Below, one piece after another: positions 1,047 through 9,194 of a stretch of DNA of 50,279 nucleotides (position 1 is its first letter; the number at the start of each line of letters is the position of its first letter). The position numbers were made by a program, and so were the translations under genes. The stretch is from assembly GCA_048941285.1 (NCBI GenBank), contig JBHLNS010000022.1, positions 1 to 50,279 on the forward strand, given 5' to 3'. This stretch comes from Promethearchaeota archaeon (GTDB lineage: Archaea > Asgardarchaeota > Lokiarchaeia > Sigyniarchaeales > SOKP01). The notes under the pieces were generated by a model that worked only from the letters and a program-made list of their open reading frames with translations, was not told where the DNA came from and did not search any database.

Positions 1047-3455
1047 TTAAATAAAACATGACAGATCTTTTTGAAGAGATTTCTTATTATAATCTGAAGT
1101 CAATAATTCCTCAAGTTCAGGGAATTCAAAAGGAAAAATGTTTTCAAAAGCTCTTTTCAGTAGTTCAACATACTTTTTTCGATCATATTCATGTTTCTTT
1201 TCATCATATAAATCTGAAAGGACTACTTTTTTTTCAGGGAAATTCGGATCAGCATCAGCATTAAGAATAATATATCTCACGTTCTTTCCTGCGGACGCTA
1301 TAACACCCGATCGTTCTAATTGTCTAGCAGCAACTGCTTGATATGAATTTACCTTATATTGATTTGGACTTCGAGAGATCTTTTGTTTTATCGTGAGTTC
1401 ATCACGGGAAACTTTTCCGGAGTACACCCTCTCCACATATTCAAAGAGTTTTTTCTTTGCTTCCGGTATTCTTTTTTTAAACTCATCAACTGTCATTGCT
1501 CCTTGAAATATATCAATAAAAGCATACTGTGCATCTTTCACAATTTTGGGCATATCTCTACGCCGTACTTCAATGCCTCTGACCTTTATCTCACCATCGC
1601 TTTTGATACCCCAATAATGACTAAGTGCAGGGACATCTGGCTCTGCTCGAGAAGGTAAAAAAACAATAGTATTAAAGCGCCCATCCCAACTCATTGGAAT
1701 ACTTGTGCTTTCGGAAATTTCTTTTGCAATTTTCTTTGTAATTATTTCAAATTCCTCTGGAGTTCTTCCTTTTTTATCTTGAAGCCACATTGAATCAACA
1801 ATTCCATGAACAACTTTACAATTATAATTCTTCGCAATTTCAGCAGATCTCAATAAAAACTCACGAGCAAAAGCACAAACTGTTTGATGTGCCTCAATTT
1901 TGCCAAAACGAGCATTCTTGAATCCAAGATATCCGAAACTTACAACAAGCACCCATTTCAAAGCAATATCCGTGAATTTATAGCGAAGATCATCATGTGT
2001 CTTATTATATTCTTTGCACTCTAAACGTTTTCTAAGGGGGAGGCTTATCGATTTTGATATTATACCCTCCCTTTTTGTGCATATATGGAAATTAAGACCC
2101 GGCACTTTAATGCCCATTCCATCGTCCTTGCAACACTTGCAGTTAATTGTTTCTGAAGAAATGTTAAAATTTGCCATTAAAGATGGATACATTGAAGAAA
2201 AATCCAATTCTACAACTTGATCGAAAACACCGATTAAAGGTTCAAATATATGACCGCCCCGATCATTTGTGATTAAGTCTATACAGTTTCGAAAACCTTC
2301 TGGGCTTTTCTTGAAAGGCGGGATAAGATGATCTAGTTTATATGCATTATAGTATTGTATCGATTGCAGGGCACCACCAATTGTAACTCTACATAATCTC
2401 TGCATAGGGACCCGAGACACCCTTGCAACTTCAATAACTCCGGGAATATTACCTTCACTAAAATGTAGACTGCCATAAGTCGTAGTGTCTAAATGAAAAC
2501 GCCCCGTAAAATAGACTTGTGTTTTAGAACGTCGCATTATTATTCCGTAAGACATGTAATGATCTGAGTTTCCTGATAGATTAAAGATACATTTCCTAAG
2601 TGGTGTTCTAGTGCGAGAAAAATATATATCCTTTGACACTCGATTCGCTGACGCTCGCGCAGCTAAGTAAGGAAATACAAATTCATCTCCTCCGCGTGTT
2701 AATATAATGTCAGGATCTAATCTTTCAATCACCTTACTAATTGCTTTGATTGTTTCACCTTCATCAGCCTTATCAATTAGGATCTTTCTCTTTCTCTGTC
2801 CATCTGCTCTTGGGATATTGGCTTTCTCATCCTTTTCAACAATACTGACTTCTGCATATAGTAGAGGATCATTGAAATAAGCTTTCATTCCACGCTGTCG
2901 TATTTTAATATCTAGCCACACAGCTTTCAGAGGCGGTAAATCATAAAATAATTCTTCATTGTCATCATTTAATTCTAATGATATCAGGCGCATTATTGAA
3001 GCACCAACTCTTCCCTTATTCTCAACTTTGACCCTGAAACTGCAAAGAGACATCGGAAACAAGTCATTTACATAGAAATACATCTGAGAAATTGGAAGAT
3101 CAGTATTATACAAAGTAAAAAGACCGATTTCATCGATTTCGTTAATTGTCTTCTTAAAAACTGAAGGCTTCACAACAGAAACTCCAAGAATTTTTGTTTT
3201 TTTGTGATCCTCCAGCTTCACATATTTTTCACAAATTCTTACATCCTCTACATTATGGTGGGATTTAATAATCTGTTTTAGTCTTTTAAAGTCTTTACCA
3301 ACATGTTTTTTTGGCACAGCGAAAAATTCGGGGCAGAAGTCATGAAAAATTTTTATGACTTTTTGCTCTTTTGCTTTTTTGACCCAGAGAATTACTCCAT
3401 TGCTATATGTGGAAACATCTAAAAGCCAACCATCAAATTGTTCATGAAAGTACAA
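1047..3455 (-). CDS. polB2: Family B DNA polymerase, PolB2 (Dpo2-like) group
   Basis: Motif A DFSSMYPS is intact. Motif B is KWVLVVSFGYLG (canonical KxxxNSxYG). Motif C is HGIVDS (canonical YGDTDS), the PolB2 signature. Exo motifs are degenerate (LDIK; GGDEFVFPYL). C-terminus QKDLSCFI. Confidence 0.92.
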   Translation of the reverse strand: MYFHEQFDGWLLDVSTYSNGVILWVKKAKEQKVIKIFHDFCPEFFAVPKKHVGKDFKRLKQIIKSHHNVEDVRICEKYVKLEDHKKTKILGVSVVKPSVFKKTINEIDEIGLFTLYNTDLPISQMYFYVNDLFPMSLCSFRVKVENKGRVGASIMRLISLELNDDNEELFYDLPPLKAVWLDIKIRQRGMKAYFNDPLLYAEVSIVEKDEKANIPRADGQRKRKILIDKADEGETIKAISKVIERLDPDIILTRGGDEFVFPYLAARASANRVSKDIYFSRTRTPLRKCIFNLSGNSDHYMSYGIIMRRSKTQVYFTGRFHLDTTTYGSLHFSEGNIPGVIEVARVSRVPMQRLCRVTIGGALQSIQYYNAYKLDHLIPPFKKSPEGFRNCIDLITNDRGGHIFEPLIGVFDQVVELDFSSMYPSLMANFNISSETINCKCCKDDGMGIKVPGLNFHICTKREGIISKSISLPLRKRLECKEYNKTHDDLRYKFTDIALKWVLVVSFGYLGFKNARFGKIEAHQTVCAFAREFLLRSAEIAKNYNCKVVHGIVDSMWLQDKKGRTPEEFEIITKKIAKEISESTSIPMSWDGRFNTIVFLPSRAEPDVPALSHYWGIKSDGEIKVRGIEVRRRDMPKIVKDAQYAFIDIFQGAMTVDEFKKRIPEAKKKLFEYVERVYSGKVSRDELTIKQKISRSPNQYKVNSYQAVAARQLERSGVIASAGKNVRYIILNADADPNFPEKKVVLSDLYDEKKHEYDRKKYVELLKRAFENIFPFEFPELEELLTSDYNKKSLQKDLSCFI

Positions 3456-3458
3456 TTT

Positions 3459-3731
3459 CTATTCTGTTCCTTTTATCGTTTCTTCTAATTCTTTTACTTT
3501 TCCTTCTAGCATTTCGATTTTCTTTTCTTGTTCGACCGCAAAAGAAATAAACAAAACTTCTGACAACATTGGACGCGCACTCATGCTGCCGGCATCTGCA
3601 TGAATTCGCGCAAAATTCATCAATTTATCGAATATCTTCTGCTCTTCCGGGCGCAGTGCTCTTTTGAAATCCTTCCAGCTTTCAATCTCATGTTCTAAAG
3701 CAGGTCGAAAAGAGGGTACAGTTCTTCCCAT
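3459..3731 (-). CDS. Small PolB2-associated helical protein (arCOG07300-like)
   Basis: MGRTVPSFR...W..FKRALR.EE...FDKL...AR..A.A pattern of the small gene usually found directly upstream of polB2. Stop is 3 nt from the polB2 start. ATG 3731 preferred over the track's 3800. Confidence 0.8.
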   Translation of the reverse strand: MGRTVPSFRPALEHEIESWKDFKRALRPEEQKIFDKLMNFARIHADAGSMSARPMLSEVLFISFAVEQEKKIEMLEGKVKELEETIKGTE

Positions 3732-3779
3732 ATCTGACACTTTGATTTTGAGTAAAATCCAAAAAAGAAAGTATTTCGG

Positions 3780-3814
3780 CAAATTAAAACAAAAATACAA
3801 TACAAATTTTCTGA
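3780..3814 (-). promoter_or_regulatory. Shared upstream motif, copy 1 (upstream of small partner-polB2 operon)
   Basis: caaattaaaacaaaaatacaatacaaattttctga matches 7167-7201 at 28/35 positions without gaps. Confidence 0.6.
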
Positions 3815-3880
3815 TTTTTTTAAAAGGAAAATAATAATAGTTCGGAAAATATTACTATATAGAATTTATGAGATGTTTAG

Positions 3881-4849
3881 ATGTACAAAATAATCGATTC
3901 TCTTTGTTATGTACCTACTGAAGAGGTATTTGTAGATCTTCTTGTTTCATTACCACCTCAAATGGGACGATATCTTAAGGACGTTTTTGGCCCAAGAGTA
4001 GCACCTCTTTTAGGGATCACATCAGAAGAGCTATATAGAATGAAATCAACATTGAATAGCTCCGAACTTATAGAAGCAATAAAACCATTTTTACCTAAAA
4101 TAAGAAAATTAACTATGTCTATTGAAAAATTTGTCGATCAACTCAATAAAATGGGAGTTGAAAAAGCCGTCATTTTCAATTTAGATGAAGAAACTCCAAG
4201 TGGAATAAAAGGATTACCAAATGATTATTATGCTGAAATAGTACGACAGTTTCCAGATAAATTTATAGGTTTTGCTGGAATTGACCCATTAAAAAAAAAG
4301 AAAGCCCTAAAAGAGATTAGAAGGTCATATGATTTAGGCCTTAGAGGGATTGCAATTAGGCCATTTATGTTTCAAATTCCACCATCACATAAAAAAATGT
4401 ATCCTATATATTCCACTTGCATAGAGCTTGATATTCCGATATGGTTTCATATATCAATCAATTATTCTACTAATACAATGGAAGTGGAACGCCCCATTTA
4501 TCTTGATATTGTTGCCCAAGATTTTCCTGAATTAAAAATGATTGCTGGACATGGGGGTTGGCCTTGGATTAATGAAATGATAGCAGTTGCCTGGCATAAT
4601 CCTAATATTTATATTGATATCGCTTCTTACCTACCTAAATATATTGGTATGAAGGGAACTGGTTGGGAACCTCTTATCCATTATGGTAATTCGGTTTTAC
4701 AAGATAGGATTCTATTTGGATCTACCTGGCTGTTCATGGGAATGTCAATAAAAGAATTAGCTGATGAGGTTATGAAGTTGCCGTTGAAAGAAGTAGTGAA
4801 GAAAAAATGGCTTTATGGCAATGCAGCTAAACTTCTTGGTATAAACTGA
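3881..4849 (+). CDS. Amidohydrolase family (amidohydrolase_2-like) protein
   Basis: FIGFAGIDP, IPIWFH, IAGHGGWPW, NIYIDIA, RILFGS and LYGNAAKLL motifs. Confidence 0.85.
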   Translation: MYKIIDSLCYVPTEEVFVDLLVSLPPQMGRYLKDVFGPRVAPLLGITSEELYRMKSTLNSSELIEAIKPFLPKIRKLTMSIEKFVDQLNKMGVEKAVIFNLDEETPSGIKGLPNDYYAEIVRQFPDKFIGFAGIDPLKKKKALKEIRRSYDLGLRGIAIRPFMFQIPPSHKKMYPIYSTCIELDIPIWFHISINYSTNTMEVERPIYLDIVAQDFPELKMIAGHGGWPWINEMIAVAWHNPNIYIDIASYLPKYIGMKGTGWEPLIHYGNSVLQDRILFGSTWLFMGMSIKELADEVMKLPLKEVVKKKWLYGNAAKLLGIN

Positions 4850-4863
4850 TCAGATTTAATAGA

Positions 4864-4974
4864 TTATTCTTCTTTTTCATTGCACTCTGGACAAAATATC
4901 AGTTCAAAATCTTCTAAATCACTTCTCCAAACATATATCATACCATTTCCTTCACACAATTCGCATCTTTTCAC
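4864..4974 (-). CDS. 36-aa zinc-finger microprotein (not in ORF track)
   Basis: GTG start with AAGGAGA just upstream. Translation MKRCELCEGNGMIYVWRSDLEDFELIFCPECNEKEE has CxxCxGxG and CPxC. Confidence 0.65.
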   Translation of the reverse strand: MKRCELCEGNGMIYVWRSDLEDFELIFCPECNEKEE

Positions 4975-5204
4975 ATCTCCTTTAGGATATACAAAATAAT
5001 TCGTAACGATAACTCACTTCCTTTTTTATTCATGATATTTGAACTTGAAAATTCCATCATTATACTATAAAATACCCTATTTAAGTGTTTTCATAAAGTT
5101 TGAAATTTGTAAAGATATTATGTTAATAATTATTGGAAAAAAATTATTAAATAAGACTGAAACTTATTAATTTATTAGAAAAAACCGAATATACCAGTAA
5201 AGTA

Positions 5205-5621
5205 ATGACTGAAAACAACAATGAATGGCATGCCCCCTGTGGAATTTTTTGCAAGAGATGTCCAGGAGTAGAATCTTTTGGATGTAAAGGATGTAGAGCT
5301 CAAGAGGGGCAAATTCATAAATTTCCCGTATGCAAAACTTATAAATGTGTTACAAGGAAAGGATTTGAATTTTGCTATGAATGTAATGAATTCCCATGTG
5401 AAATGTTACAACCAATTGTAAAATTTGAAATCTTTGAGCCTCACAATTCAAAAGTTTATAACTTGGTTATGATTCAAAAATATGGTTTAGAAGAATGGAA
5501 TAAAATCTGTGATGAAAAATCTAATCTTTATTATCAAGGAAGGAAAATTCGATATGGTGGTGATCCTTTGACACTTGGGCAAAAAGATCCTAGTATATAT
5601 AAAAAAAAGAAAAAAGAATAA
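5205..5621 (+). CDS. DUF3795-like Cys-rich protein
   Basis: APCGxxCxxC...CxGC...CxxxxC...FCYECNEFPC pattern. Confidence 0.75.
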   Translation: MTENNNEWHAPCGIFCKRCPGVESFGCKGCRAQEGQIHKFPVCKTYKCVTRKGFEFCYECNEFPCEMLQPIVKFEIFEPHNSKVYNLVMIQKYGLEEWNKICDEKSNLYYQGRKIRYGGDPLTLGQKDPSIYKKKKKE

Positions 5622-5720
5622 TAAATATTTTTCAATATAATTTTTAAAATAAATATTCCCTATAATACCTCGACCAAAACTAATCTTAAAACAAATTTGT
5701 TTCTTTTATTAAAAAGGATA

Positions 5721-6038
5721 CTAATGCATTGATTTTTTCTCAGCTTTTTCAACTCTTTCAGCTTCTTTTTCAGCTTCCTTGTCAGCTTTCTTCTTATCTT
5801 TTTTAACTTTATCGGCTTTTTTTTTAACTTCTTCGTCGTCTCTCTTGAGTCCATCAGCAACCTTCCTTGATTCCTTAGTTTTTTCTGTTGCTGCCTTCTC
5901 ATGTTTTTCATAATCTTCTTTCGTTGCTTCCCTAATAGCTTTAGCTCCACATTTTTCACAATATAATGTGTCTGTATGAGTAAATTCTCCGCATGAATCA
6001 CAGATTAATTTAAATGTTTTTCTAAATGTCTTATCCAA
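5721..6038 (-). CDS. Zinc-ribbon protein with Lys/Glu-rich helical tail
   Basis: CDSCG...CEKCG followed by a charged helix. TTG start with GTGAGGA upstream. Confidence 0.7.
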   Translation of the reverse strand: MDKTFRKTFKLICDSCGEFTHTDTLYCEKCGAKAIREATKEDYEKHEKAATEKTKESRKVADGLKRDDEEVKKKADKVKKDKKKADKEAEKEAERVEKAEKKSMH

Positions 6039-6396
6039 AATTCCTCACATCTTTTATTTTTTTTTTCCAGTACTAATCTTACTAATATTTACTTTATTTA
6101 AAGGCTATTTATACTTATATATTTATATGTGTGGTAAAGATTAATTCACATTTTATTAATAGATAGAAATCATAGAAATGTAGCTTAATATAGAGGAAAA
6201 TTAACCCCAATAGACTCAAGTTGTATTCTTAAAGAATTTTTCTTATTTTGCGATTTCCCCTTTTTTTAAAAAAAAAAATTAGGAGATTTAACTGGTAGCA
6301 AGAAAGTAGAAGTATTTAAAATTTCAGAGATTCAATAGATCTTGGATCTTTTATAATCATATTCGCTGCAGTTTTACTAGTGTCAATATTAAAGAT

Positions 6397-7149
6397 TTAC
6401 ACCCAATAATCTAATGTAGTATTTTTTAAAGGAATCTTTTTCTTGGTCGTGCGAGGTTTCCACTTTAGCAACCGATTTTCTGGAAGATATGGGTGTTGTA
6501 CGAGAACATATTCTACATACCTATCATCATCATTTATCTTCACGAGCACATTTCCAAAATGAGAAAGTATTTTTCCACCCTTTGGTCTAAAAAGGGAATT
6601 ATCGTGTAAAGGTGCTGTTATAATAATGAGAGGATTTGCTTTCCAGAGTATCTGTTTAATCCCGTCTACTATCCTTAGCAAATCTTCAAATGTCTGTCTT
6701 TCATAACCTTCAAATAGAGTCGTAATCCCAGAGATTAATACGACTTTCACATCTTCAAGTATAGAAAGTCTATTCTCCAAAATCTCGACCATTTGATCCC
6801 ATGTAAACGCTCGTGAAATAAGAATGCTTTCTAGCACTTTCCGTGGTGACAGATTCTGGGATACTGCAAACTTACTTACATTATAAGGATTAAAACGGTT
6901 ATTTCCATCGATAAAAGCAACTCTAATACCCTCCCCGAGTCCTCCATTGGTAAAAGCTTTCTGGGCAATAACGGCAGTGGTTAACAAAATATTGTTCGTT
7001 AGCTTCTTATCCCCATAGAGTAAATACACCAAATCACGATGAAAGCCCCCAGAAAGCAACTCATCTAACGTGCTATCCCCACTTGAAATAAGAGAGATAT
7101 TACTGTTCCTTTTATATAATGTGAATCCTGTCTGATTCAGAGTCATCAT
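6397..7149 (-). CDS. Inactive RecA/RadA-superfamily protein (PolB2-cassette type)
   Basis: SSGDSTLDELLSGG, then Walker A reduced to YGDKKLT. AFIDGNNRFNPY and ILISRAFT present. Walker B region is VLISG. C-terminus NTTLDYWV. Confidence 0.85.
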   Translation of the reverse strand: MMTLNQTGFTLYKRNSNISLISSGDSTLDELLSGGFHRDLVYLLYGDKKLTNNILLTTAVIAQKAFTNGGLGEGIRVAFIDGNNRFNPYNVSKFAVSQNLSPRKVLESILISRAFTWDQMVEILENRLSILEDVKVVLISGITTLFEGYERQTFEDLLRIVDGIKQILWKANPLIIITAPLHDNSLFRPKGGKILSHFGNVLVKINDDDRYVEYVLVQHPYLPENRLLKWKPRTTKKKIPLKNTTLDYWV

Positions 7150-7166
7150 ATGAAGTAACTATTCTT

Positions 7167-7201
7167 CAAAATAAAACAAAGATACACCGACAATTTTCTG
7201 A
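7167..7201 (-). promoter_or_regulatory. Shared upstream motif, copy 2 (upstream of radA-like gene)
   Basis: caaaataaaacaaagatacaccgacaattttctga, 17 nt upstream of the ATG at 7149; 28/35 identical to 3780-3814. Confidence 0.6.
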
Positions 7202-7484
7202 AATATTCGTGATTTCTCTATGGGGTAGTATCACTATTTCTTTTTACAAAAAAAGAAGTTCTTTTAAAAGTAAAATCGTTTCATGAAGACGGAGGGGGGT
7301 GATTGAAAGTAAAAATAAGAAATTTCTAATGACTGAGATATTTGGCATTTCTATAGTGTAATGATTATAAAAAAAAAATTGATTGGTAAAATCAAATTTT
7401 ATAATAAGTAATGTTTAATATCAATCTGCCAATTTTATAGTTTAAAAACTAAATAAATGTATATTATTAAAATTAAGTGAAAAT

Positions 7485-9194
7485 ATGATGAGTTATAGTA
7501 GTCGTTTTTGGAAAGATAAATATGATAAAGGAATTACTGATTTGAATCCTAAAGAATTCGATTTTTCTTTTACTGAAATTACCAGAAAAACATTTGAAGA
7601 ACTCCCTGAAAAACTAGCAATTGCGTTCTACGGTACGGAAATCTCGTATGGAGAATTGGATAAATTATCGAATGAATTTGCTCATATGTTAATTGAGAAT
7701 GGAATGAAGAAAGGAGATGTACTGGGAATAAATACTGCGAATATTCCCGAATATATAATTGGGATATTGGGTGCTTTAAAAGCAGGAATTATTGTTTCAG
7801 GAGTTTCTCCACTTCTTTCAGCCGTTCAAATAGAATATCAGTTAAATGATTTAGGTGCTGAAGGAAAGCAAGTTGCTTTGCTTACATTGGATGCTATTTT
7901 TGCAGGTCATATAACAAAGATTTATACCAAGATTCCTTCATTAAAACTTGTGATTACAACTTCAGTTGGTGGGTTTATGCCCAAAATGCTTGCAAAGCTA
8001 GGGAAACTAGTAGGAAAGATCCCCAAAGGAAAGGTAACTCCTTTAGAAGGAGTAAATGTGCTTGAATATCATAAACAAGTCAAAGGGAAATATCCTGATG
8101 ACCTACCAAATGCAAAAGTAAATCCAAATGATATTGCATTCATCCAGTATACTGGAGGTACTACTGGTCCCCCAAAAGGAGCGAAGTTAAGTCACAGAAA
8201 TTTCGTAGCAGATATAAAAATCTTTCAGCATTGGCTTAGTTGGGAGTTTGGAACTGGTTTTGGATTATCAGGGTTTCCATTTTTCCATATAGCAGGATTA
8301 TTTACTTGCGCAAATGTCATAATGCTAGGCTGGAGTCAGATCTTAATCCCTAATCCAAGAGACACTGACCATATTATTAAAGAAATGCTGAAATATAGGC
8401 CAACTGTCTTAGCGAACGTACCCACATTGTATCAAATGTTGATAAAGAATCCAAAATTTACAAAAATCGATAAAGATATGATAGATTATGCTATTTCAGC
8501 AGCAGCACCTTTTCCAAAAGAGTCACAGGAGATATTTGAGAGCATAATTGGTGAAGGCAAACTTATAGAATTATATGGTATGACTGAAACTTCACCTTTA
8601 ACAATTGGTAATCCTTCAAAAGGAAAGAAAAAACTAGGACACATTGGCCTACCTTTTCCTAATGTGGAATTTAAGCTCGTAGACCCAGATTCGGGAAAAG
8701 AAGTACCTTTAAATGAAGCTGGAGAAATTTGTGTGAAAGGTCCGATGGTGATGGAGGGATATCATAACAAACCAGATGAAACTAAGAAAGCTATTGATTC
8801 AGAGGGCTATATGCATACCGGTGATGTTGGGATTATGGATGAAGAAGGATATGTGAGAATTGCAGATCGTACAAAGGATATGATTATTGTTGGTGGGTTT
8901 AAAGTTTTCTCAGCAAAATTGGAAGATACATTGACAAAGCATCCTGCTATTGAAATGGTAGCCACAATTGGCATTCCAAATCCTGATAGACCTGGATCTG
9001 AAATAGTTAAGGCCGTAATACAAATTGCGCCAGATTATGAATATGAAAATGAAGAGGCATTAAAAGAAGAGATTTTGGCATTTGCTAAGAAAGAATGTGC
9101 ACCTTATGAAGTTCCAAAAATAATAGAATTTACATCAGAATTACCACTTACCGTAGTGGGGAAAGTTGATAAGAAGCTCTTGAGAGATCATTAA
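7485..9194 (+). CDS. fadD: Long-chain fatty acid--CoA ligase (AMP-binding)
   Basis: QYTGGTTGPPKG, YGMTE, TGDVG, DRTKDMI and PLTVVGK motifs. Confidence 0.9.
   Translation: MMSYSSRFWKDKYDKGITDLNPKEFDFSFTEITRKTFEELPEKLAIAFYGTEISYGELDKLSNEFAHMLIENGMKKGDVLGINTANIPEYIIGILGALKAGIIVSGVSPLLSAVQIEYQLNDLGAEGKQVALLTLDAIFAGHITKIYTKIPSLKLVITTSVGGFMPKMLAKLGKLVGKIPKGKVTPLEGVNVLEYHKQVKGKYPDDLPNAKVNPNDIAFIQYTGGTTGPPKGAKLSHRNFVADIKIFQHWLSWEFGTGFGLSGFPFFHIAGLFTCANVIMLGWSQILIPNPRDTDHIIKEMLKYRPTVLANVPTLYQMLIKNPKFTKIDKDMIDYAISAAAPFPKESQEIFESIIGEGKLIELYGMTETSPLTIGNPSKGKKKLGHIGLPFPNVEFKLVDPDSGKEVPLNEAGEICVKGPMVMEGYHNKPDETKKAIDSEGYMHTGDVGIMDEEGYVRIADRTKDMIIVGGFKVFSAKLEDTLTKHPAIEMVATIGIPNPDRPGSEIVKAVIQIAPDYEYENEEALKEEILAFAKKECAPYEVPKIIEFTSELPLTVVGKVDKKLLRDH

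Follow-up and report, generated by a model that had tools for sequence, protein, structure and literature searches.

The window analysed here, a stretch of 50,279 nucleotides from a Promethearchaeota archaeon of the Lokiarchaeia (assembly GCA_048941285.1, contig JBHLNS010000022.1, positions 1 to 50,279 of the forward strand), carries two copies of a 35-bp element, at 3780-3814 and 7167-7201, upstream of the two halves of a cassette that encodes the RadA paralog iRadA, the small protein PPB2 and the DNA polymerase PolB2. We propose that these copies are the promoters of the two units of a split PolB2 "mutasome" operon, and that a 10-bp box within each of them, TYAGAAAAYT, is probably the site of an upstream factor that serves a small, lineage-specific translesion-synthesis regulon, itself probably responsive to DNA damage. 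The first-pass annotation of this stretch had presented the pair as a shared upstream element and candidate SOS-like box. Its core, a real element selectively maintained before both halves of a damage-tolerance cassette rather than a relic, held up, while the fit to the ANTTTC hexamer of Sulfolobales promoters and the sharing of the whole 35 bp did not. The selected core common to both copies consists of the 10-bp box, a 15-nt spacer and a TATA box.

A recount of the two copies gave 28 identities in 35 positions without a gap, as first described, and a repeat search extended the pair to 40 nt (3775-3814 and 7162-7201, 78% identity). The minus-strand sequence is TCAGAAAATTTGTATTGTATTTTTGTTTTAATTTG for 3814..3780 and TCAGAAAATTGTCGGTGTATCTTTGTTTTATTTTG for 7201..7167; both copies lie 5' of minus-strand genes, in the same orientation ahead of both cassette halves, and the annotated distances of 48 nt to the ATG at 3731 and 17 nt to the ATG at 7149 are correct, although the iRadA ATG kept in relatives is the second one, at 7146, 20 nt from the 7167-7201 copy. 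The claim that no other gene in the window has such an element also stood, since the earlier consensus with up to 3 mismatches hit these two sites only, and none of 100 shuffles of the window yielded any site. The genome-wide scan that the annotation had called for covered the 3.55-Mb assembly (101 contigs, 29.7% G+C, 7.1 million positions on both strands), in which the next-best match to the consensus had 6 mismatches at the 30 specified positions. With the 7167-7201 copy as query, the partner alone reached 25/35 in the genome. The 3780-3814 copy, which is richer in A+T, has a single further match at 28/35, on C64 5' of a signal-peptidase gene, so that raw identity is only moderately rare for this copy and is suggestive, not decisive. 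A position weight matrix (PWM) built from both promoter sets scored the two sites at 53.6 and 47.2 bits and the next site of the genome at 15.8. Neither the full-length 40-column PWM nor a PWM of the box plus TGTAT gave a third genome site, which first suggested a two-member set, and the whole 35-bp pattern is confined to the iRadA and PPB2 promoters in this genome.

The decisive evidence for the element is its conservation at orthologous loci, not raw identity between the copies. The iRadA copy is kept in 29 of 30 same-genus loci with 31-35 of 35 positions identical (L042 is cut by a contig end), and the PPB2 copy lies in register in 28 of 29 such loci with 24-35 of 35 identical (L015 has a 1-nt insertion). 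When TYAGAAAAYT-N5-TGYAT-N5-TTTWAWT was searched with at most one mismatch in 61 related genomes, 53 matches were found, no more than two per genome, all within the genus (in the window's own genome and in 32 of 36 others) and 52 of them just 5' of iRadA or PPB2 genes by their coordinates; the reversed control pattern gave 2 matches in the same 61 genomes. When 69 upstream regions of iRadA and 62 of PPB2 were aligned, the box and TATA columns stayed at about 90-100% with flanks falling to background, and in the PPB2 alignment the box forms the 5' edge of the conserved block. In four loci (L122, L128, L132 and L133) the PPB2-PolB2 unit faces the other way with respect to iRadA and has taken the element with it. 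Since both copies are kept in dozens of same-genus genomes while the flanks diverge, the element is functional rather than a neutral relic of duplication; the possibility that the motif lacks conservation at orthologs, by which the annotation itself might have fallen, is thus answered by the same-genus loci. The state of position 2 (C or T) agrees between the iRadA and PPB2 boxes of 22 of 29 loci, but this agreement is not counted as co-evolution because the genomes are related.

In the iRadA promoter, the box (TCAGAAAATT, 7192..7201, minus strand) is near-invariant in all 29 same-genus loci with upstream DNA, and together with the preceding TT it forms a palindrome, TTTCAGAAA, which is an invariant extra part of this copy. 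It is followed by a GTCGG sub-box (7187..7191, minus strand) that is specific to the iRadA-type (B-type) promoter and invariant in L031-L060, and by a TATA box (TTTTATTTTG, 7167..7176, minus strand) that begins 25 nt after the start of the box. The PPB2-PolB2 promoter has the same box (TCAGAAAATT, 3805..3814, minus strand) and, again 25 nt after its start, a TATA box (TTTTAATTTG, 3780..3789, minus strand). The composite form of the box is TTTCAGAAAATTGTCGG. Far outside the genus, the iRadA promoter is marked by a TTGTCG(G) core about 10-12 nt ahead of a TATA-like element; of 85 unique iRadA upstream regions, 69 have TGTCGG at -75..-35, and the Promethearchaeum loci L143-L147, of which L147 is the record of the cultured strain, have the TTGTCG form, AAGAAATTTGTCGCC...TTTATT.

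The spacing within these promoters is fixed. Among unique upstream regions, TYAGAAAAYH was present in 61 of 74 for iRadA and in 45 of 63 for PPB2, with an offset from box start to TATA-like element of exactly 25 nt in 45 and 28 of them, respectively; for iRadA the offset is 24-26 nt in 60 of the 61. The iRadA mRNA is probably leaderless, because the conserved ATG (7146) lies 20 nt past the TATA box, and PPB2 probably has a short 5' untranslated region, because its ATG lies 48 nt past the TATA box; an ATG 20-25 nt past the TATA box is seen for iRadA and for small2, a further gene introduced below. The box would thereby lie at about -55 to -46 from the predicted start site. Archaeal activators usually bind upstream of the element that transcription factor B recognises (BRE) and of the TATA box, and we infer from sequence that a single common factor acts here, by activation rather than repression. 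In the mechanism we propose, one putative sequence-specific factor would bind the box and help to recruit TBP and TFB, and would so co-regulate a small, lineage-specific translesion-synthesis regulon, probably on DNA damage. Generic promoters of the genome have a flat composition profile 5' of TATA-like elements and yield no useful BRE consensus. Searches for other signals were negative: no Rfam match was found at E<=1 in window positions 3300-7900, a scan for sigma-70 promoters and terminators stayed at shuffle level, and no RNA run was listed as covering window positions 1047-7400. The annotation's idea of the whole 35-bp element as the shared unit has to be narrowed, as only about 10 bp plus the TATA box at fixed spacing are common to all member promoters.

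The trio downstream is the known PolB2 "mutasome" operon iRadA-PPB2-PolB2, here in two halves. The first gene (6397..7149, minus strand) encodes a RadA/Rad51 paralog with a degenerate Walker A motif (YGDKKLT; Pfam Rad51, 2.1e-14), whose scores against NCBIfam RadA/RadB models were far under the cut-offs; the iRadA family has been described in section 3.1 of PMC11791011 and in PMC4104785. PPB2 (arCOG07300 / DUF8156; 3459..3731, minus strand) is a 90-aa helical protein with an invariant MGRT N-terminus, present in 51 of 61 related genomes. It carries the precomputed labels DUF8156/PF26485 and gave no match in a local Pfam copy from which PF26485 is absent. PolB2 (1047..3455, minus strand; Pfam DNA_pol_B plus exonuclease domain, NCBIfam type-B polymerase) starts 3 nt past the PPB2 stop and is one of 3 PolB-family matches in the genome. 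Compared with the PolB2 feature list in PMC8764526, it has a substituted PolC motif (HGIVDS, with His for Tyr and the first Asp lost) and a degenerate exonuclease motif (Exo I, DIK). The inactive-ATPase RadA paralog, the helical PPB2 of about 90 aa and the order iRadA-PPB2-PolB2 all agree with mutasome membership. In the published descriptions the three genes are usually adjacent and co-oriented (PMC11791011, PMC4104785, PMC8764526). In the window an amidohydrolase gene (+), a DUF3795 gene (+) and a Zn-ribbon protein gene (-), all assigned by Pfam, are inserted between the halves (3881..6038). Among relatives, anything from 36 nt to several kb separates iRadA from PPB2; in more distant members of the class (L061-L064 and others) the two genes are adjacent, 10-120 nt apart, and a separate PPB2 promoter was not seen there.

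PolB2 operons are reported to be damage-induced in other archaea (PMC11791011 section 3.1; PMC8764526), and by analogy with them damage responsiveness is plausible here. The neighbourhoods of polB2 are reported to be enriched in orc1/cdc6 in archaea and lexA in bacteria, together with SRAP and DUF72 genes (PMC11791011 section 3.1; PMC4104785); a search for SRAP gave no match in this genome.

The 10-bp box also occurs at further PolB2-linked genes outside the window, as would be expected of a small regulon, and this suggests that the set extends beyond two promoters. These members surfaced when the box plus TATA box, with free spacer, was searched across 41 genomes. A DUF72 gene (PF01904) has the box at about -113; 28 of 30 same-genus loci keep it, with diverging sequence on its 5' side. 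In the window's genome (G000) the box reads TTAGAAAATA (contig C74). Another gene of about 52 aa, which we call small2 and whose usual place is a few kb downstream of PolB2, has the box at -55, kept in 28 of 30 loci. It was found in G000 and in 31 of 36 other same-genus genomes and in none of 24 genomes outside the genus, and at least 20 of those 31 have it on the contig and strand of the cassette, 3-13 kb beyond PPB2. In this genome small2 is at G000:C38:8823-8978 (L192:1821-1979, minus strand) and a paralog of it is on contig C65 (L193:1469-1618, plus strand). The paralog, located by tblastn, combines TTTCTGAAATTTGTCGG with a TATA box in 14 of 14 loci; its site reads TTTCTAAAATTTGTCGG on C65, and its box is the iRadA-type composite TTTCWGAAAWTTGTCGG. 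Among unique upstream regions, TYAGAAAAYH was present in 28 of 30 for DUF72 and in 31 of 50 for small2 plus paralog, with the offset exactly 25 nt in 23 and 23, respectively. In all, conservation of the box extends to 4-5 PolB2-linked transcription units.

As to the background in this genome, the box occurs in sense at -140..-20 of 48 of 2968 crude ORFs (open reading frames; 1.6%), and the box plus TATA spacing in 8 of 2968 (0.27%), three of these eight being iRadA, PPB2 and DUF72. As a negative control, a winged helix-turn-helix (wHTH) gene on contig C8, which also has box plus TATA box, was followed into its orthologs, and the box was lost in 4 of 4.

Both small2 and its paralog are proteins of about 50 aa with the N-terminus ..SYYDWEL.., found only within the genus and without a Pfam family, and small2 often follows a gene for a TrmB-family regulator; possibly both belong to the PolB2 system as components overlooked so far. 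The window opens with a truncated ORF (1-384) that continues an ORF at the end of C38 (L192:3521-3835), with the same residues in both; C38 and the window contig thus appear to abut, and the TrmB-family regulator and small2 would therefore lie about 1.5-3 kb beyond PolB2.

Several observations weigh against the regulon reading. The composite pattern was found in 0 of 24 non-genus genomes, and no box was present in the 18 DUF72 upstream regions examined outside the genus. The position of TGTAT, the second motif of the original pair, is not fixed in DUF72 or small2. A PWM of the box only gave, above 15 bits, 8.2 intergenic against 4.0 coding matches per Mb, and since the box is short and A+T-rich and this enrichment about two-fold, regulon membership cannot be read from the box sequence alone. 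The possession of the box by DUF72 and small2 is partly circular because both genes were discovered through it; what counts as evidence for these two is solely their independent link to PolB2, which for DUF72 includes its enrichment beside polB2 (PMC11791011 section 3.1). The genomes behind the conservation counts are related and are not independent observations. Finally, of the factor candidates examined (PPB2, the TrmB neighbour, Orc1/Cdc6, the wHTH protein on C8 and a LexA-type protein), none fits.

Among these candidates, PPB2 is unlikely to be a DNA binder, because its predicted model (all-helical, pLDDT 89, the mean predicted local distance difference test score) has no match in the PDB by fold or by sequence; it has been modelled in complex with PolB2 and, to judge from a section heading, binds through an N-terminal arm (PMC11791011). 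The wHTH gene on C8, considered as an autoregulated factor, was rejected for want of a conserved box in its four orthologs. The TrmB-family regulator (340 aa, gene just 5' of small2) has position in its favour, as 16 of 30 loci have it directly 5' of small2 and co-oriented with it, and in this genome it lies about 1.5 kb beyond PolB2, given the overlap of C38 with the window start. However, a search at E<=1e-20 failed to find it in 18 of 36 same-genus genomes, and three genomes without a TrmB match (G003, G005 and the single-contig G006) nonetheless keep the boxes at iRadA, PPB2 and small2; not found in half of the genus, it was rejected, and we consider its binding of the box very unlikely.

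Could the box be the Lokiarchaeial counterpart of the ANTTTC element of Sulfolobales, bound by an Orc1-2-like Orc1/Cdc6 paralog? In Sulfolobus, Orc1-2 binds ANTTTC and activates damage genes, the element being needed for induction, and the coding strand carries A(N)TTTC at -44..-39, immediately 5' of weak BREs (PMC5817253, PMC6061795); dpo2 is the damage-induced polymerase (PolB2) there (PMC8764526, PMC6061795). The plus strand does contain ATTTTC at 3806-3811 and 7193-7198, as annotated, that is, the complement of the GAAAAT in the box; the genome encodes three Orc1/Cdc6 paralogs (Cdc6_C-containing genes), and archaeal polB2 neighbourhoods are enriched in orc1/cdc6 as noted above. Yet the coding strand at the box reads GAAAAT and not 5'-ANTTTC-3', the hexamer would lie at about -52..-47 (start site predicted from TATA spacing), some 8 nt further upstream than in Sulfolobus, and boxes with C at position 9 (GAAAAC) do not fit. 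On either strand ANTTTC occurs in 3273 of 17791 (18.4%) random 35-nt intergenic windows of this genome. An orc1/cdc6 gene was present in none of the fetched cassette loci, and no exact box stands 5' of any of the three paralogs, which the first-pass annotation had named among its scan targets. The fit is therefore weak (wrong strand, probably offset position, a hexamer common by chance), and we regard this reading as unlikely, slightly more so than the promoter-strength and repressor explanations below. The two systems are alike in that short non-coding boxes stand just 5' of the BRE/TATA of weak-BRE promoters in several damage-related units; the Lokiarchaeial word differs in being longer (10 nt, TYAGAAAAYT), on the opposite strand and about 8 nt further up by the predicted start site, in marking 4-5 promoters against 214 motif-bearing genes in S. 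acidocaldarius (PMC5817253), and in showing no Orc1/Cdc6 linkage. By analogy the logic, an upstream box common to damage-tolerance genes including PolB2, resembles that of Sulfolobales, but membership in that system is not supported.

Other explanations dispense with a damage-linked activator. The box might be a constitutive promoter-strength element, for example a UP-like A-tract or an extended BRE to which the basal machinery responds, its genes merely having alike or strong promoters. The A-rich box, its fixed distance to TATA and the 48 other ORFs of the genome that carry it would suit this, but generic promoters lack such a pattern 5' of their TATA-like elements, box plus spacing is found in as few as 8 of 2968 ORFs with 3 of them cassette-linked, the C and G positions in the box stay conserved although the DNA is about 76% A+T, and the chance occurrence on C8 is not conserved. 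We therefore think a constitutive element unlikely. To a like degree we doubt that the box is a repressor operator with SOS-like logic, in which damage would lift the block imposed by a LexA analogue. The iRadA-type and paralog sites do have the palindrome TTTCWGAAA followed by GTCGG, reaching toward the BRE, and bacterial PolB2 operons adjoin lexA (PMC4104785; PMC11791011 section 3.1); the common box, however, lies 15 nt 5' of the TATA box and not over it or the start site, and the palindrome is present in 1 of 63 PPB2, 6 of 50 small2 (pooled with the paralog) and 0 of 30 DUF72 regions. What defines a LexA operator, a palindrome over the core promoter and an encoded LexA, is not what is seen, TTTCWGAAA being limited to iRadA-type sites. 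The LexA_DNA_bind search gave two weak wHTH matches only and is uninformative, because archaeal control genomes also give matches. Lastly, a local duplication that accompanied the splitting of the operon could have left the copies behind as neutral relics; the direct repeats 3.4 kb apart that flank iRadA and the inserted genes, and the lack of a visible separate PPB2 promoter further out in the class, might suggest this. The relic reading is the least credible of the alternatives and is refuted by the conservation data: both copies are maintained across dozens of species with diverged flanks, loci with no insert and a gap of only about 127 nt (L109, L123) still have the PPB2 copy, and the same box stands at unlinked genes. 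The PPB2 promoter may nonetheless have arisen by duplication.

The reading as a factor site upstream of a split mutasome operon can be set beside three known arrangements. The PolB2 mutasome operon (Makarova et al. 2014; Timinskas et al. 2025) has the same three families in the same order, but in this genus there are two transcription units with look-alike promoters and often unrelated genes between them; no promoter element is described in the main-text portions of the mutasome papers, supplements aside. The annotation knew of no described Asgard damage-response operator, and we likewise found no account of this element in print, the supplements of PMC11791011 aside. Bacterial SOS boxes (imuA-imuB-dnaE2, PolB2 operons) are likewise a common cis-element before a mutasome of inactive recombinase paralog and error-prone polymerase and before few other genes, but the common box here is non-palindromic and 5' of the core promoter, in an archaeal TBP/TFB setting in which no LexA was identified. 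Archaeal upstream activating boxes act, by implication, through recruitment of TBP/TFB. The ARA and ArnR boxes and the Ptr2-type upstream activating sequence, mentioned in PMC5817253, resemble the present box in lying 5' of BRE/TATA at fixed spacing, but their sequences are unrelated and the lineage here is Asgard.

Some further observations concern these loci and boxes. A second conserved non-coding block lies at window positions ~7262-7330, 110-175 nt 5' of iRadA (plus strand ...TTTTAAAAG..CATGAAGACGGAGGGGGGTGATTGAAAGTAAAAA), and is also present in L038, L044, L055, L060, L102, L113, L147 and others, out to Promethearchaeum despite a different neighbour gene; it has no Rfam match and no conserved ORF past a frame of 3-9 codons. 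In 22 of 85 loci, this genome excepted, a second TTTTGTCGG lies 164-166 nt 5' of the proximal one in the same orientation, and L157-L159 have a similar distal TTTTGTCG(G/A) 5' of small2. At G000:C3:1260-1291 (L148) and in L150-L153, a block of about 45 nt with TTAGAAAATT-N15-TTTAAAT is invariant in 5 aligned genomes; 8 genomes were listed for it by the pattern search. A divergent Cys-rich gene, which looks HdrC-like by sequence, stands about 60 nt away, and the block is followed by about 450 nt without a conserved ORF but with repeated (G/A)TGATCAAAA words. On C80 (~6280-6325, L194), TTAGAAAATT is followed 26 nt on by AGAAAATTTGTCGGAGTCCT, words as in the promoter of the small2 paralog on C65, with no clear downstream gene; this site could be that of an unannotated small gene or a decayed copy. 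The match on C64 (G000:C64:99986-100020) is an inverted repeat of box-like halves (TAAGAAAAT-N8-ATTTTCTGA), 27 nt 5' of the signal-peptidase gene.

As for the cassette genes themselves, in the Promethearchaeum records L147, L143 and L144 a mere 44 nt separate an iRadA homolog from PolB2 and the PPB2 gene is missing from this place, and several family-f2 genomes have 2-5 PPB2 homologs away from the cassette (five in G047, four in G054). The queries used gave no match to either of the two cassette genes sought in G022, G029, G032 and G034, and in G012 PPB2 alone was missed. The Lokiarchaeial cassette is also carried by a contig titled as a Nanopelagicaceae (actinobacterial) metagenome-assembled genome (L104, DATKTW010000160.1; iRadA 74% identical, PPB2 and PolB2 alongside), which looks like a mis-binned contig. 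In L105 and L115 the conserved PPB2 ATG position reads ATA with no in-frame ATG nearby, which may reflect an alternative start or a sequence error.

To our knowledge, the Orc1-2/ANTTTC circuit of Sulfolobales is so far alone among archaeal damage-response circuits in having been worked out. In a bolder form of our proposal, tentative and rather doubtful in our judgement, TYAGAAAAYT, or more fully TTTCWGAAAWTTGTCGG, would be the operator of the first Asgard DNA-damage regulon, in which a dedicated factor, possibly an Orc1/Cdc6 paralog, switches on the PolB2 mutasome together with a UvdE-like DUF72 enzyme and two proteins of about 50 aa that had gone unnoticed. If this were true, the two small proteins would be new parts of the translesion machinery, and the circuit could be tested in culture, since cultured Promethearchaeum (L147) also has the TTGTCG core in its iRadA promoter. 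With its conserved and exact placement before the PolB2 mutasome and a few linked genes, the cis-element offers a concrete probe for isolating the factor and a defined promoter set for in-vitro transcription, and the two small gene families together with DUF72 are candidate new PolB2 partners. The look-alike promoters of the window also suggest that an operon split by insertions can stay co-regulated.

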